A stretch of DNA of 64,000 bases, taken from NCBI GenBank assembly GCA_963790305.1, contig CAWBOC010000005.1:672001-736000 (forward strand), written 5' to 3'. Of this stretch, positions 23,552 to 27,660 are shown one piece after another. Below the pieces are notes generated by a model, which worked only from the letters and a program-made list of their open reading frames with translations, searched no databases and had not been told where the DNA came from. The translations under genes were made by a program, and so were the position numbers. Each line of letters starts with the position of its first letter. Within the stretch, counting starts at the first letter, position 1. The stretch comes from an uncultured Gemmatimonadaceae bacterium. Its GTDB lineage: Bacteria; Gemmatimonadota; Gemmatimonadetes; Gemmatimonadales; Gemmatimonadaceae.

Positions 23552-23626
23552 GGGGAGCCAAATCTAGAAGCGAGAGCGACGTGCAGCCAGCAACGCCGTA
23601 CGGCCACACGCGCTACATTGTGTCCG

Positions 23627-25216
23627 GTGGAAGACTTCGCGGCGCTGCTCGCCCTCATCGGGATCGTCATCGTCGTCTCCTCGCTGGTCTCCGGGGCGGT
23701 GGAGCGCACTGGGCTGCCACAGGTCGCGATCTTCCTCGCCCTTGGTGCCGGGCTCGGCCCATGGGGATTGGGTCTCGTCAATGTCAGCCTCGATTCGCCG
23801 ACATTGCGTGTCATTGCGGTGCTGGCGCTCGTCCTCGTGTTGTTCAGCGACGCGATTTCCGCCGACACGGGCGCGTTGCGAAAACAGCGCGGGCTCGCCC
23901 TCCTCGTGCTCGGCCCCGGTACACTGATCGTCGCGGCGCTCATTGCCGGCGCAGCCCATCTGCTTCTCTCGTTGAGCTGGGCCCACGCGGCAATCCTGGG
24001 TGCCGCGCTCGCATCGACCGATCCGGTGCTGTTGCGCACGGTACTTCGGCATCAGCGACTCCCGGAATCCACGCGGCTCGCGCTACGCATGGAAAGCGGG
24101 ATGAACGACGCAGTGCTGCTGCCCATCGTCGTCATCGCGATGCATTTCGCACCGCTCCCACCGGTCGCGATGGAGAGCAGCCTCGCACGCAGCATGGTGG
24201 GTCTGTTCGTGCTCGGACCGCTCATCGGAGGGTTCGTTGGGTGGCTCGGCATCATCGCGCTCGTTCGCGTCCGCGATCGCATCGGGGTGCGTCGCGACTA
24301 CGAATCGCTGTACGCGCTCGGCATCGCGCTGACCGCGTTCGCGCTCGCTGAGCGCGTTGGAGGCAGCGGCTTTCTGGCGGCGTTCGCGGCGGGGCTGGTG
24401 ATCGCCGTGCAGGACCTCGAGCTGTGCGACTGCTTTCTCGAGTACGGCGAAGCGACCGCGGAGATGTTCCTGCTGTTGACGTTCGTCGCCTTCGGCGCCT
24501 CGCTGTTGTGGACGGGCCTCGACGCGCTGGATGGACGCACCCTCGCATTCGCGGGGTTCGCGTTGATCGTCCGTACGGCGACGCTCTATCCGGTGCTCGC
24601 GCGCGCGGGTCTCGATGCGCGAAATCGCCGCCTCATCGCGTGGCTTGGTCCGCGAGGGCTGAGCTCGCTTCTTCTCGTGCTCCTGCCGGTGTTCGCCGGG
24701 ATGCCGGGTGCGGCCGGCCTCTTCACGATCACCTGTCTGGTCGTCCTGCTGTCGGTGATCGTGCATGGAAGCGGCATCGCGATCTGGCTCAGGCGCGATA
24801 CGAGGGAGAAACGAGGAGGGCGGAATGAGGACGCTCGGGGCAAAGAAGCTCCCGTGCCGGCGGTGTCATCCGGCGTCGCCGACGCTACGCCCATCACCAT
24901 CGATGAGCTTCGCCGGCGGCTCGAGCACGGCGACACCGTGCACATCATCGATGCGCGCGCCGACCGCAACTGGGAGCAGGACGATCGCGTGGCACGCGGG
25001 GCGATCCGGCTCTCACCTAACGATGCGGTGCGAACGGCGAGGGAGCTCGGCCTCGACCGTCACGGGTCGCTGGTGGTGTACTGTGCCTGACCCGACGAAG
25101 CGACGAGCGCCCGTGTGGCGCGCGAGCTGATAGCGGCGGGCTGGGCGGACGTACGCCCCCTGGTTGGGGGGTGGCGCGCGTGGCTCGATGCGGGACTTCC
25201 CACTGATCCCAAGTAA
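23627..25216 (+). CDS. CPA1/NhaP-type cation:proton antiporter fused to a C-terminal rhodanese domain; predicted selenocysteine at TGA 25088-25090 (529 aa, U488)
   Basis: ASTDPV and ESGMND antiporter motifs; rhodanese IIDAR..GAIR..VVYCA*PDEATSARVARELIAAGWADVRPLVGGWRAWLDAGLP continues in frame past TGA to TAA 25214-16. Confidence 0.85.
25100..25127 (+). other. Candidate bacterial SECIS hairpin
   Basis: GCGCC-CGTGT-GGCGC (25107-25121); loop begins 22 nt after UGA with G second in the loop; stem can be extended below. Confidence 0.7.
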
Positions 25217-25222
25217 TCCCGA

Positions 25223-25286
25223 TTGACATTGTCGGGATTGCTGCCTAGCATCCCGCGTTCGCGCTAGTTGAAATCGATTCTCAACT
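25223..25286 (+). promoter_or_regulatory. Sigma70 promoter and Fur-box-like operator
   Basis: TTGACA(25223-28)-17-TAGCAT(25246-51); palindrome GTTGAAATCGATTCTCAAC (25267-85) matches 10/14 positions of TGATAATnATTATCA. Confidence 0.7.
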
Positions 25287-25293
25287 GTCCACC

Positions 25294-27660
25294 ATGCTCC
25301 GCTCTACCGTCATCGCGTTGGCCTGCGCCTTGGCCGCCTCCCCCGCCGCTGCCCAGCAGGCGCTCACCGCCAGCCTTCCGTCCATCGCGAGCGCCGACAC
25401 CACAAGGGTCTACCGCTTCGACATCCCGGCCCAGCCGCTCGGTGACGCGCTCGCCGACTTCGCACGGCAGACCGGCCTCGAGGTCGAGCTATCGGATCCG
25501 ACCGCCAATTCGGTTCAGGCCACCGCCGTCAGTGGCTCGCTCACCGCGCCCGCGGCGCTTCGCGCGCTGCTCGCCGAAACCGGATTCGACGCGCGGTTCG
25601 AGAACGCCGAATCGGTGCTCGTTATGCGCCGACCGTCGAGCGACGCCGCGCCGCGGGAGCTGGCCCGGGTCGTCGTCACCGCCGATGCGGCCCGCGGTGC
25701 GAGATACACCGCCCGCCGGAGTGCGACGGCCACACGGACCGACGCCGAGATTCGCGACGTGCCGCAGGCGATCACGGTACTCGGTCGCGACCTGATCGAC
25801 GACCAGGCGATGCGAGGCATGGCGGACGTCGTGCGCTATGTTCCCGGAATCACGATGGGGCAGGGGGAGGGACACCGCGATGCGCCGACGATTCGCGGCA
25901 ACAGCACCACCGCGGATTTCTTCGCTGATGGCGTTCGCGACGATGCCCAGTACTTCCGCGACCTCTACAACATCGACCGCGTGGAGGCCTTGAAGGGGCC
26001 GAACGCGATGGTGTTCGGGCGGGGCGGCGGTGGCGGCGTGATCAATCGGGTGACGAAGGAGGCGACGTGGACGCCCACGCGTGCGTTCACTCTTGCCGGC
26101 GGCTCGTTCGAGCACCGCCGCGCCACGCTCGATGTCGGTGATGGGTTTGGCCGAAGCTTCGCCGCGCGGCTCAACGGCATGATCGAGGATTCACGTCAGT
26201 TCCGCAATGCGACGGGACTGGAGCGTCATGGCGTAAATCCAACGGCGACGATGCTCGCCGGGAATACGCTCGTGAAGGTCGGGTACGAGTACTTCGCCGA
26301 TCGCCGCACGGTGAATCGAGGCATCCCGTCATTCCGCGGAGCACCATCCAACGCTCCGATCGAGACGTTCTTCGGCGACCCGAACGCCAGCCGCTCCCGG
26401 CTCGTTATGCATGGGGGCAGCGCGATGGTCGAGCGGACGTGGGGGACCATCACGCTCCGAAATCGCAGTCGCCTCGTACGCTACGACAAGTTCTACCAGA
26501 ACGTCTTTCCCGGCGCGGTGAACGAGGCCGGCACCGACGTCAGTCTCTCCGCCTACAACAACGCGACCGATCGGCGAAGCCTCTTCAATCAAACCGACCT
26601 GGTGTACGCCTTCGGCACTGGGCGCGTGCGACAGACATTCCTCGCCGGCGTCGAGCTCAGCCACCAGCGGTCGGACAACTACCGCACGACCGGGCTCTTC
26701 GACGGAACGGCGACGTCGATGCTGGTGCCGTTCGCATCGCCCACCGTATCTCCGACGATCGAGTACGTGCAGAGGCCGGCGGATGCGAACAATCGCGTCA
26801 ACGCGGACGTCGTGGCCTTCTACGCGCAGAACCAGGTGTCGCTCGGGTCGCATTGGCAGGCGATCATCGGAGCGCGCTACGATCGCTTCGACCTGAGCTT
26901 CCACGACTATCGGGGCGGAGAAGATCTCACGCGTCTCGACGCGATGGTCTCGCCTCGTGTCGGTCTCGTGTTCAAGCCGGTCGAGCCCGTGTCGCTCTAC
27001 GGATCGTACAGCGTGTCGTATCTTCCCGGGTCGGGCGACCAGTTCGCGTCGCTCACTCCCACGACTCATGCGCTCGAGCCGGAGGGCTTTACCAATCGCG
27101 AGGTCGGGCTCAAGTGGGACCTGCGCCCCGTACTCGCGCTGACAGCCGCGTGGTATCGCCTCGATCGCACGAATACCGCGGCGCCCGATCCCAACAGCAC
27201 GACGCGACTGGTCCAGACGGGGCGCCAGCGCGGCACCGGATACGAGCTCGCTCTCGCCGGCGACATCGTCGGAGCATGGCAGATCGCAGCGGGCTACGCG
27301 TCGCAGAAAGCGACGATCCTGAGCAAGACGTCAGCCGCCGAGGCAGGTGCGACGGTCCCGCTCGTTCCGCGTGAGACATTCTCGCTCTGGAACCGATATC
27401 AGGTCGTTCAACGCCTGGGTGTCGGCCTCGGCGTCATCCATCAGTCGCGAATGTTCGCCGCGATCGACAACACGGTCACGTTGCCCGGTTTCACGCGGCT
27501 CGACGCGGCCGCCTTCGTGACGCTCACCCCGTCCATGCGCGCGCAGCTCAACGTCGAGAACGTGCTCAACGAGCGGTATTACCCGACATCGCACGGGAAC
27601 AACAACATCGGTCCCGGTGCGCCGCGGACGCTGCTGTTCTCGTTGGCTCTTACCCCTTAG
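25294..27660 (+). CDS. TonB-dependent siderophore receptor with an N-terminal STN signalling domain
   Basis: FDIPAQPLGDALADFARQTG (STN); DVPQAITV, IRG, RVEALKGPNA, GGVINRVTK; C-terminal NVENVLNERY..GAPRT. Confidence 0.93.
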   Translation: MLRSTVIALACALAASPAAAQQALTASLPSIASADTTRVYRFDIPAQPLGDALADFARQTGLEVELSDPTANSVQATAVSGSLTAPAALRALLAETGFDARFENAESVLVMRRPSSDAAPRELARVVVTADAARGARYTARRSATATRTDAEIRDVPQAITVLGRDLIDDQAMRGMADVVRYVPGITMGQGEGHRDAPTIRGNSTTADFFADGVRDDAQYFRDLYNIDRVEALKGPNAMVFGRGGGGGVINRVTKEATWTPTRAFTLAGGSFEHRRATLDVGDGFGRSFAARLNGMIEDSRQFRNATGLERHGVNPTATMLAGNTLVKVGYEYFADRRTVNRGIPSFRGAPSNAPIETFFGDPNASRSRLVMHGGSAMVERTWGTITLRNRSRLVRYDKFYQNVFPGAVNEAGTDVSLSAYNNATDRRSLFNQTDLVYAFGTGRVRQTFLAGVELSHQRSDNYRTTGLFDGTATSMLVPFASPTVSPTIEYVQRPADANNRVNADVVAFYAQNQVSLGSHWQAIIGARYDRFDLSFHDYRGGEDLTRLDAMVSPRVGLVFKPVEPVSLYGSYSVSYLPGSGDQFASLTPTTHALEPEGFTNREVGLKWDLRPVLALTAAWYRLDRTNTAAPDPNSTTRLVQTGRQRGTGYELALAGDIVGAWQIAAGYASQKATILSKTSAAEAGATVPLVPRETFSLWNRYQVVQRLGVGLGVIHQSRMFAAIDNTVTLPGFTRLDAAAFVTLTPSMRAQLNVENVLNERYYPTSHGNNNIGPGAPRTLLFSLALTP

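Follow-up and report, generated by a model that had tools for sequence, protein, structure and literature searches.

Some antiporters of the CPA fold, among them KefC, SOS1 and SLC9C1, are set by a sensor domain at the cytoplasmic C-terminus. KefC responds to electrophile-glutathione adducts, and the C-terminus of NhaP2 (CvrA) carries a TrkA-C domain; the archaeal proteins PaNhaP and MjNhaP1 are without a C-terminal domain. In bacteria, selenocysteine (Sec) is delivered to a UGA codon through a hairpin, the selenocysteine insertion sequence (SECIS), which binds SelB-GTP-Sec-tRNA(Sec), lies just 3′ of the UGA at the spacing described by the bSECISearch model, and has a G near the start of its loop. 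Transporters are already found among the predicted selenoproteins: the parts of a 2026 review (PMC13188914) available to us name SO_0444-family Cu/Zn efflux proteins (UxC), an E1-E2 cation ATPase (UxxC), the mercuric transport protein, YeeE/YedE and SaoP/SaoB. The same parts give rhodanese form 3 (CxU), represented by the NCBIfam family NF041203, as a known predicted selenoprotein type. Here we analyze a 64,000-nucleotide window from an uncultured Gemmatimonadaceae bacterium (assembly GCA_963790305.1, contig CAWBOC010000005.1, positions 672,001 to 736,000) in which one forward-strand gene joins a CPA1/NhaP-type cation:proton antiporter to a C-terminal rhodanese domain with an in-frame TGA in its Cys-x-Sec loop that is very probably read as Sec. 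The protein resembles the transporter selenoproteins named above in that a membrane transporter carries Sec within a short Cys/Sec motif, and differs from them in that, in the review text available to us, none of those is a CPA antiporter and none has a rhodanese domain. The Sec-containing rhodanese type is already known, as a first-pass annotation of this DNA had also stated; its fusion to a CPA1 antiporter is a new architecture.

The gene is a single frame of 529 codons (window 23627–25216) that opens with GTG and closes with TAA at 25214–25216. Its sole in-frame TGA is codon 488, preceded by ...GSLVVYCA and followed by PDEATS (VVYCA-U-PDEATS). After this TGA come 41 sense codons, PDEATSARVARELIAAGWADVRPLVGGWRAWLDAGLPTDPK, and then the TAA, so that the frame is exactly the one described in the first-pass annotation; the C-terminal peptide of the read-through protein is ...GGWRAWLDAGLPTDPK. 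The start was set by aligning orthologues that begin M-(CP)-V/E-D/H-F. Orthologues from the same genus start ATG-TGT-CCG-GTG (M-C-P-V); the aligned first codon is ATT here (window 23618–23629), so translation probably begins with the GTG at 23627. The open frame reaches further upstream to 22385; this extra stretch overlaps a kinase gene on the opposite strand and is without homology.

Both domains expected from the first inspection were matched in Pfam: Na_H_Exchanger (PF00999) over residues 17–389 with 148.8 bits (cut-off 26.2, E 2.6e-43), and Rhodanese (PF00581) over residues 425–521 with 36.6 bits (cut-off 22.2, E 6.6e-9), the latter match crossing the TGA. Standard open reading frame calling ends the frame at 25090, with ...GSLVVYCA as the last residues. 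The predicted truncation in standard annotation was indeed found in the databases, where the proteins P0002 and P0012 are 487 residues long with ...VVYCA as their end, and where residue 487 is the last, after the same letters, in an NCBI record that bears the name ʻcation:proton antiporterʼ. Nearly all of the best 120 database matches had 92% query coverage and contained PF00999 only. Almost certainly, the annotated form lacks the last 42 residues of the true protein, which complete a Sec-containing rhodanese domain at its C-terminus.

To follow codon 488 across relatives, 61 genomes of the same order were searched with stop codons read through. An orthologue was present in 12, and its aligned codon was TGA in 11; the remaining locus was cut by a contig end. 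In addition, public genomes were scanned at one genome per species and the best 80 of 368 related stretches were kept. The two sets probably overlap in genomes and are not independent. Among the best 80 of 368, the codon was TGA in 73 and a Cys codon in four (two TGT, two TGC), and three loci were cut before the site. The 41-residue tail was matched in the same frame in all 77 loci of this set that contain the site. The comparison of homologues proposed in the first-pass annotation thus gave TGA or Cys throughout, with the downstream frame kept. A further Cys form, protein P0095, reads YCACPAEETS at the site, and the annotation's comparison with fusions of DedA to rhodanese also held, as 14 of 14 relatives with DedA (PF09335) and rhodanese domains read YC[AS]CPNE at this place. 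The joint conservation, in 73 of 77 loci, of the TGA with the open frame past it and with the hairpin described below is far above chance. In a sample of the phylum, the rhodanese domain was found in 15 of 151 genomes (14 of 150 without one unpublished genome), each with one TGA.

The closest relatives, at 80–88% identity, are labeled Gemmatimonadaceae by their depositors. Of the 73 TGA forms among the best 80 of 368 stretches, 52 carry depositor labels of Gemmatimonadota; the other 21 are labeled Acidobacteriota, Planctomycetota, ʻdelta proteobacteriumʼ/Kofleriaceae, Binatia, Eisenbacteria, Chloroflexaceae or unclassified bacteria. The Cys forms are labeled Manganitrophaceae/Nitrospirae (three) and gammaproteobacterium (one).

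The part of the gene past the TGA has the signature of coding sequence and is very probably translated. Variability at codon positions 1, 2 and 3 was 0.157, 0.135 and 0.344 in the 22 codons after the TGA, and 0.202, 0.205 and 0.432 in the 20 codons before it. In 49 of the 73 TGA-form orthologues the final terminator of the same frame is itself a TGA, located 36–58 codons past the Sec-TGA at the point where homology stops. Because TGA is a true terminator in these 49 orthologues, the organisms do not read it as sense in general, and an alternative code of that kind was rejected. One mRNA would in these cases use UGA in both senses at a distance of ca. 110–175 nucleotides.

The hairpin noted at first inspection, 17–31 nucleotides past the TGA with G second in its loop, is present as GCGCC-CGTGT-GGCGC, and the spacing from the UGA to the loop is 21 nucleotides. 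Its conservation was examined in an ungapped alignment of 74 TGA forms from −6 to +51 nucleotides around the TGA. RNAalifold gave one helix, pairing columns 26–30 with columns 36–40, which correspond to the two arms listed in Table 1. Standard pairs occupy 99.7% of the 365 cells of this 5-bp helix, and compensatory double changes occur in three of its five pairs, so that the conservation of the hairpin asked about in the first-pass annotation was borne out. The middle pair is G-C in 54, A-U in 14 and G-U in five distinct sequences, and the A-U version costs two amino acid changes (A to T and A to V). None of 500 shuffles reached the observed pairing values, and a 3′ arm slid out of register pairs at only 20–66%. 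The loop reads CGUGU in 43 sequences, CGGGU in 20, CGUGC in 10 and CGGGC in one, with G2 and G4 invariant. Third-position variability is 0.149 in the hairpin codons versus ca. 0.42 in the flanking codons, and for the Ser within the stem all 74 TGA forms use AGC or AGT and none a TCN codon. The hairpins of the four Cys-form loci keep 5, 2, 3 and 4 of the five pairs.

The TGA was also found in DNA sequenced independently of the genome assemblies. Contigs of four soil metagenome runs were compared at a likeness of at least 85%; the share of the gene covered per run was up to 0.19, and none contained the gene whole. Positions 25088–25090 were without a variant letter in the contigs of all four runs, at a summed depth of 26–41 in three runs and ca. 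5 in the fourth, which settles in favor of TGA the question of a base-call error raised at first inspection. The same contigs vary nearby, with T>G at 25114, a polymorphism of the hairpin loop, and synonymous changes at 25093 and 25096. The depth of the soil contigs peaks over 25072–25130, where it exceeds the depth elsewhere in the gene by a factor of 5–15 (runs X1–X4), and many contigs match only 25088–25121 and have unlike flanks, for example ...Y-C-T before the TGA. This suggests that many diverged soil genes share a doubly constrained core of peptide plus RNA that is alike at the DNA level.

The distribution of the TGA and Cys forms follows that of selenocysteine synthase. In five of five further genomes with a TGA form, selA scored above the cut-off, and all four genomes with a Cys form were without a selA match, one of these being a 4.6-Mb chromosome and the other three having no stated completeness. 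This is the classical pattern of Sec and Cys forms versus selA across the genomes tested. The product of the gene is thus a genuine selenoprotein with a wide distribution and a systematic error in its annotation, and we hold it to be close to certain that the UGA at codon 488 is read as Sec.

To place the membrane part of the protein, a full-length structure was modeled with AlphaFold2 from an alignment of 26 sequences (mean predicted local distance difference test (pLDDT) 82.5, predicted template modeling score (pTM) 0.78); the C-terminal domain in this model is well folded. A Foldseek search with the model returned PaNhaP (4cz8, E 6.5e-11), 4cz9 and MjNhaP1 (4czb), with E values up to 8.7e-10 and template modeling (TM) scores of 0.72–0.75 on the target (0.72 for 4cz8). 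It also matched CPA antiporters that have C-terminal regulatory domains, among them KefC with glutathione (8by2), 8bxg, SLC9C1, SOS1, 7y3e and 8pd5. Model helices 118–129 and 133–140 flank a break at residues 130–132 that contains T131-D132. We take T131-D132 to be the ʻTDʼ motif of the CPA1 ion site and N160-D161 to be the ʻNDʼ motif of electroneutral CPA1 antiporters. The top NCBIfam match of the membrane domain was NF003716, a potassium/proton antiporter family, with 161.9 bits, below its equivalog cut-off of 355. A score above the Pfam threshold, the 13-helix NhaP fold of the model and the TD and ND motifs all point to a CPA1 antiporter, for which exchange activity is predicted. The protein thus shares with PaNhaP, MjNhaP1 and NhaP2 the membrane fold and the TD and ND motifs. 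It scores below the equivalog cut-off of NF003716, and its clade differs from these NhaP types in an extra ELCDCFLEYG motif and in the Sec-rhodanese domain.

The extra motif, D-x-E-L-C267-D-C269-F-L-E-Y-G, holds a second vicinal Cys pair (codons of C267-D-C269 at window 24425–24433) at the start of helix 264–300. Counting back from the basic C-terminal linker, four helices precede it after the motif, and the pair would on this count face the cytoplasm. The pattern ELCDCFLE[YF]G was found in all 80 of the best 80 of 368 related loci and was missing from eight non-fused paralogues at ca. 30% identity. In a search with the membrane domain, C-x-C was present in 20 of 21 representatives cut at the TGA and in five of five Cys-form representatives. 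The idea that the motif is exclusive to the fusion was rejected because ca. seven non-fused representatives carry C-x-C and one form cut at the TGA (P0205) does not. The CDC site thus characterizes the clade, but it does not prove that the membrane part and the rhodanese domain act as partners.

The two domains are separated by a tether of variable length, with 44 to 120 residues between H381 and D442 across the 26 orthologues. A model of the rhodanese domain by itself, built with Cys-form and DedA-fusion homologues included, reached a pLDDT of 95.3 and a pTM of 0.88. Its nearest folds are 6mxv, 3tp9 and Alr3790 (3ilm) with TM scores of 0.78–0.80 and an rmsd of ca. 2 Å, and GlpE (1gmx). In both models the central strand comprises residues 481–485 and ends at Tyr485; Cys486-Ala-Sec488 comes next, and the following helix begins at residue 489 (domain model) or at residue 492 (full-length model). 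By this model register, Cys486 would occupy the usual place of the catalytic rhodanese Cys, with Sec488 at the N-terminus of the helix. The loop reads C-A-U-P-D-E-A-T. Position 488 is conserved in 26 of 26 orthologues, as are T493 and R496, and the counts are 25 of 26 for E491, 24 of 26 for D/N490 and 23 of 26 for A487. Catalytic rhodanese loops hold their anionic donor through basic residues. Basic loop residues of the thiosulfate sulfurtransferase type were not found in the 26 orthologues, in which the loop is acidic. This acidic loop (C-A-U-P-D-E) disfavors ordinary thiosulfate sulfurtransferase or arsenate reductase chemistry.

The best specific NCBIfam match of the domain was NF041203 (rhodanese_LYCAU; residues 417–529, 93.9 bits). 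The two have in common the rhodanese fold, the [LV]-Y-C-A-U motif and Sec two residues past a conserved Cys. They differ in setting, members of NF041203 being stand-alone proteins of ca. 126 residues and the present domain forming the C-terminus of a 529-residue antiporter. The nearest complete rhodanese relatives outside the family are the DedA-rhodanese fusions, at 37–47% identity over ca. 90% of the domain. In these the module also ends a polytopic membrane protein, and a Cys stands exactly at the place of Sec. Here the partner is DedA instead of CPA1, all 14 fusions are Cys forms (CxC), and their function is likewise uncharacterized. The membrane part of the DedA-rhodanese fusions has a conserved L-C-R-x-S-L-x-P-D-x-C-V stretch (C-x8-C), found in nine of nine aligned proteins (P0276–P0283 and P0286).

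One gene thus codes for a 529-residue inner-membrane selenoprotein, composed of a 13-helix CPA1 antiporter, a flexible linker of ca. 20–60 residues and a C-terminal single-domain rhodanese. From these features a working model can be proposed. The rhodanese domain would be cytoplasmic and tethered at the position where KefC, NhaP2, SOS1 and SLC9C1 carry regulatory domains. Cys486 and Sec488 may act as a highly reactive thiol/selenol pair that is oxidized to a selenenylsulfide, persulfidated or alkylated. Such a change would switch the K+(Na+)/H+ exchange of the antiporter, possibly by a route through the conserved Cys267-Asp-Cys269 on the cytoplasmic face. No neighboring gene was conserved across lineages, the largest neighbor cluster occurring in 6 of 77 loci, which leaves the antiporter to which it is fused as the sole context of the domain. 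The acidic loop together with the lack of a conserved neighbor gene favors a sensor role.

The likeness to KefC, SOS1 and SLC9C1 is one of analogy. KefC differs in being a CPA2 protein with a KTN/RCK domain and a soluble partner; it lacks both a rhodanese domain and Sec, and its sensor part is unrelated in sequence. Regulation of the present antiporter is suggested by analogy. The first-pass annotation had raised the idea that the antiporter may be gated by redox state or by sulfur/selenium transfer. We tentatively favor, at somewhat less than even confidence, a cytoplasmic regulatory role in which the domain would be a thiol-reactive Cys-x-Sec sensor of oxidants, electrophiles or persulfides, much as in KefC. 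The more specific proposal, that the protein is a glutathione-independent switch for redox state, electrophiles or reactive sulfur that gates exchange, with selenium as the sensor, that it is a counterpart of KefC, and that it belongs to a general ʻchalcogen switchʼ which also includes the DedA fusions, is speculative and on the unlikely side. That the CDC site takes part in the switching is doubtful. Taken as a whole, a Sec-containing antiporter-rhodanese with a sensor reading is probably the best explanation of the locus.

Some observations count against this sensor reading. C-x-C in the membrane domain is shared by the non-fused representatives mentioned above, which are 398–428 residues long, and is lacking in one of the 21 forms cut at the TGA. 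HMMER gave two registers for the catalytic Cys, aligning U488 with the Cys of 6mxv domain 1 without a gap and C486 with the Cys of domain 2 with a gap of two residues. The rhodanese domain could instead be metal-binding or catalytic.

In the first of these cases, the Cys-x-Sec motif and the acidic Cys267-Asp-Cys269 site would bind a thiophilic metal (Cu+, Ag+, Hg2+, Cd2+ or Zn2+), making the domain a sensor or metallochaperone-like module and giving the antiporter a role in metal tolerance. The C, U, D and E of the loop and the stretch D-x-E-L-C-D-C-F-L-E are good ligands and are invariant or nearly so, and the acidic loop is ill suited to anionic substrates. The available parts of the review (PMC13188914) link the majority of predicted transporter selenoproteins to resistance against metals or metalloids, with the mercuric transport protein, an E1-E2 ATPase (UxxC) and the SO_0444 Cu/Zn efflux family (i,i+2 UxC motif) as examples. 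The core ion site, on the other side, has the ordinary CPA1 motifs for monovalent cations, conserved metal-resistance genes were not found nearby, and the C-x-C of the membrane domain is not limited to the fusion. Moreover, we know of no rhodanese folds that serve as metal-binding modules. Metal binding is on balance unlikely.

In the second case, the domain would be a working enzyme that transfers sulfur or selenium, or that reduces selenite, tellurite or polysulfide, and would be physically coupled to the transporter, for instance to act on chalcogen species at the membrane. Its fold is nearest to single-domain sulfurtransferases and their relatives (6mxv, 3tp9, GlpE 1gmx, PspE 2jtq, Sud 1qxn and TSTD1 6bev), Cys486 and Sec488 are both invariant, and Sec usually substitutes a catalytic redox Cys, as stated in the review text available to us (PMC13188914). 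Against such an enzyme stand the acidic loop, which has no Arg or Lys for an anionic donor, and the absence of conserved neighbors of sulfur or selenium metabolism; further, the top sequence matches are non-catalytic or uncharacterized, namely the middle domain of YnjE and Alr3790, which is without the Cys. The partner also argues against it, as CPA1 carriers move cations and not chalcogen anions. We regard an enzymatic function of this kind as quite unlikely, and the sensor reading was retained.

Other findings weigh against the reading of the TGA as Sec and come partly from the hairpin and the family assignment, partly from the genome itself. The stem has only 5 bp, and the single-sequence fold around the TGA did not reach significance (z −1.37), an equally good fold being obtained in 18 of 200 shuffles; the case for the hairpin rests on covariation. 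No SECIS-type Rfam family was matched, the only hits being at chance level (E 1.8 and 4.6). The curated cut-off of NF041203, 115 bits, was not reached by the domain. The NF041203 scores of all 15 phylum hits among the 151 genomes, 73–100 bits, are also below this cut-off, and on the strength of these scores the present domain is placed as a sister group of NF041203, not a member.

The genome of the organism, an assembly of 13 contigs that is 94% complete, was searched for the Sec machinery. SelB was found with 261 bits, above the cut-off, SelA in two pieces with 233 and 264 bits, and SelD with 359 bits (C6:122381–123405). The selD gene carries one in-frame TGA and thus codes for a Sec-type SelD. 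A tRNA-Sec gene lies ca. 95 nucleotides downstream of selD (73 bits, above the cut-off) and was called tRNA-SeC(tca) by ARAGORN. The four genes selA, selB, selC and selD that the first-pass annotation had suggested looking for are therefore all there, with the reservation that two of them are broken. The assembled selA sequence is spread across three frames (contig C9, ca. 116.3–117.8 kb) and that of selB across two (C6, ca. 48.8–50.8 kb). At face value, the broken selA and selB would leave the organism unable to make Sec.

The condition of other genes in the assembly was examined for comparison. The essential gene rpoC is also split over two frames (C9, 421.8–425.9 kb), and rpoB is not. When 48 long genes of two genomes from the same genus were compared to the assembly, 14 frame switches were found over a total of 29,249 residues in the alignments, a rate of 0.16 per kb; some genes of the present genome were counted via both relatives, and the distinct sites of frame switching number 11. 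Many switches cluster on C9 at 107–137 kb, adjoining selA. Single-base frame breaks thus affect many gene calls across this 13-contig assembly. With three breaks in 3.3 kb, the sel genes lie above the measured average rate. Among the eight other genomes of the genus, selA is intact in six, split across two contig ends in one and without a match in one that is 71% complete. Since rpoC and other genes are also frame-split and selA is intact in six genomes of the same genus, the breaks in selA and selB are most likely assembly indels, with residual doubt remaining. Loss of the Sec trait was rejected as the main explanation of the broken genes, as rpoC and at least 9 of the 48 compared genes are frame-split too.

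The same data bear on the possibility that the TGA is a real stop after Ala487, either in a decaying gene or because selA and selB are pseudogenes in this organism only, or that it is a base-call error for TGC or TGT. Public gene calls that end at ...VVYCA and the frame-split selA and selB would agree with a real stop. Against it, 73 genomes of several phyla share the ʻstopʼ together with a conserved frame beyond it, the tail is without decay and has a coding codon-position signature, independent short-read contigs show TGA, and the frame breaks strike rpoC and many other genes as well. A real stop or a sequencing error is very improbable. Read-through of the TGA without Sec, by near-cognate insertion of Trp or Cys or as programmed read-through, would likewise keep the downstream frame under selection and would suit the broken appearance of selA and selB, but is scarcely credible given a covarying hairpin of SECIS geometry, selA in five of five TGA-form versus none of four Cys-form genomes, homologues in which the alternative is always Cys (four of four loci, P0095 and the DedA fusions), and the position of the domain beside the curated selenoprotein family NF041203.

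The coordinates of the gene, its elements and its neighbors are collected in Table 1. The neighbors in the window are a divergent gene for a Ser/Thr kinase with tetratricopeptide repeats (TPR), a TonB-dependent receptor gene and a DEAD-box helicase gene. The kinase-TPR neighbor is conserved only in close relatives. Directly past the TAA there is an inverted repeat, TCCCGA-N9-TCGGGA, at 25217–25237. A promoter-like sequence, TTGACA-17-TAGCAT, lies at 25223–25251 ahead of the TonB-dependent receptor gene and overlaps the inverted repeat (one found versus 0.2 expected from shuffles). In view of the inverted repeat and the promoter-like site past the TAA, the antiporter gene looks like a transcription unit of its own.

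Table 1. Features of the antiporter-rhodanese gene and adjoining genes, in window coordinates.
Feature	Position	Strand	Basis or remark
Full predicted selenoprotein gene	23627..25216	+	GTG start, TGA at codon 488 very probably read as Sec, TAA stop
Predicted CPA1/NhaP-type cation:proton antiporter domain, residues 17–389	23675..24793	+	PF00999, Foldseek
T131-D132 in the split-helix break	24017..24022	+	D132 invariant, T131 in at least 90% of 26 orthologues
N160-D161	24104..24109	+	Invariant in 26/26 aligned orthologues
D-x-E-L-C267-D-C269-F-L-E-Y-G, second vicinal Cys pair, start of helix 264–300	24413..24448	+	Motif search
Flexible linker, residues 397–418	24815..24880	+	pLDDT <50
Rhodanese domain, residues 425–521	24899..25189	+	PF00581; complete only with TGA read-through
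Cys486 (TGT), first residue past the central β-strand	25082..25084	+	Invariant in 26/26 orthologues
TGA, very probably selenocysteine 488	25088..25090	+	Orthologue codons, soil contigs, selA co-occurrence
41 codons after the Sec codon	25091..25213	+	Contribute the helix that follows the active-site loop, together with the terminal GGW..AW..G.P part of the domain
SECIS-type hairpin within the coding region	25107..25121: stem 25107–25111/25117–25121, loop 25112–25116 (CGUGU)	+	Covariation, RNAalifold
Ser/Thr protein kinase with TPR repeats, 1063 residues	20360–23551	−	5′ end 75 nucleotides from the antiporter start
TonB-dependent receptor gene	25294–27660		Downstream neighbor

A selenoprotein of the antiporter-rhodanese type was described neither in the catalogues nor in the full-text literature searched, a scope that leaves subscription papers and the supplements of selenoproteome surveys outside. 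In the text of the review available to us (PMC13188914), the terms ʻantiporterʼ, ʻexchangerʼ and ʻGemmatimonadʼ have no occurrences. Since essentially all public records stop at ...YCA and list just an antiporter, hundreds of genomes conceal a functional domain and, with it, a selenoprotein. The CPA antiporters join the short list of membrane transport classes that include selenoproteins, and the use of selenium is extended to Gemmatimonadota and other aerobic soil phyla that lie outside the discussion in those parts of the 2026 review. If the rhodanese domain is a sensor, selenium would serve in the regulation of ion homeostasis, not in catalysis, and the antiporter would offer a directly testable case. 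If the switch proposal is true, the cysteines on the cytoplasmic face, in ELCDCFLEYG of the antiporter and in C-x8-C of the DedA fusions, may be the means by which an undescribed ʻchalcogen switchʼ acts on transporters driven by the proton motive force.

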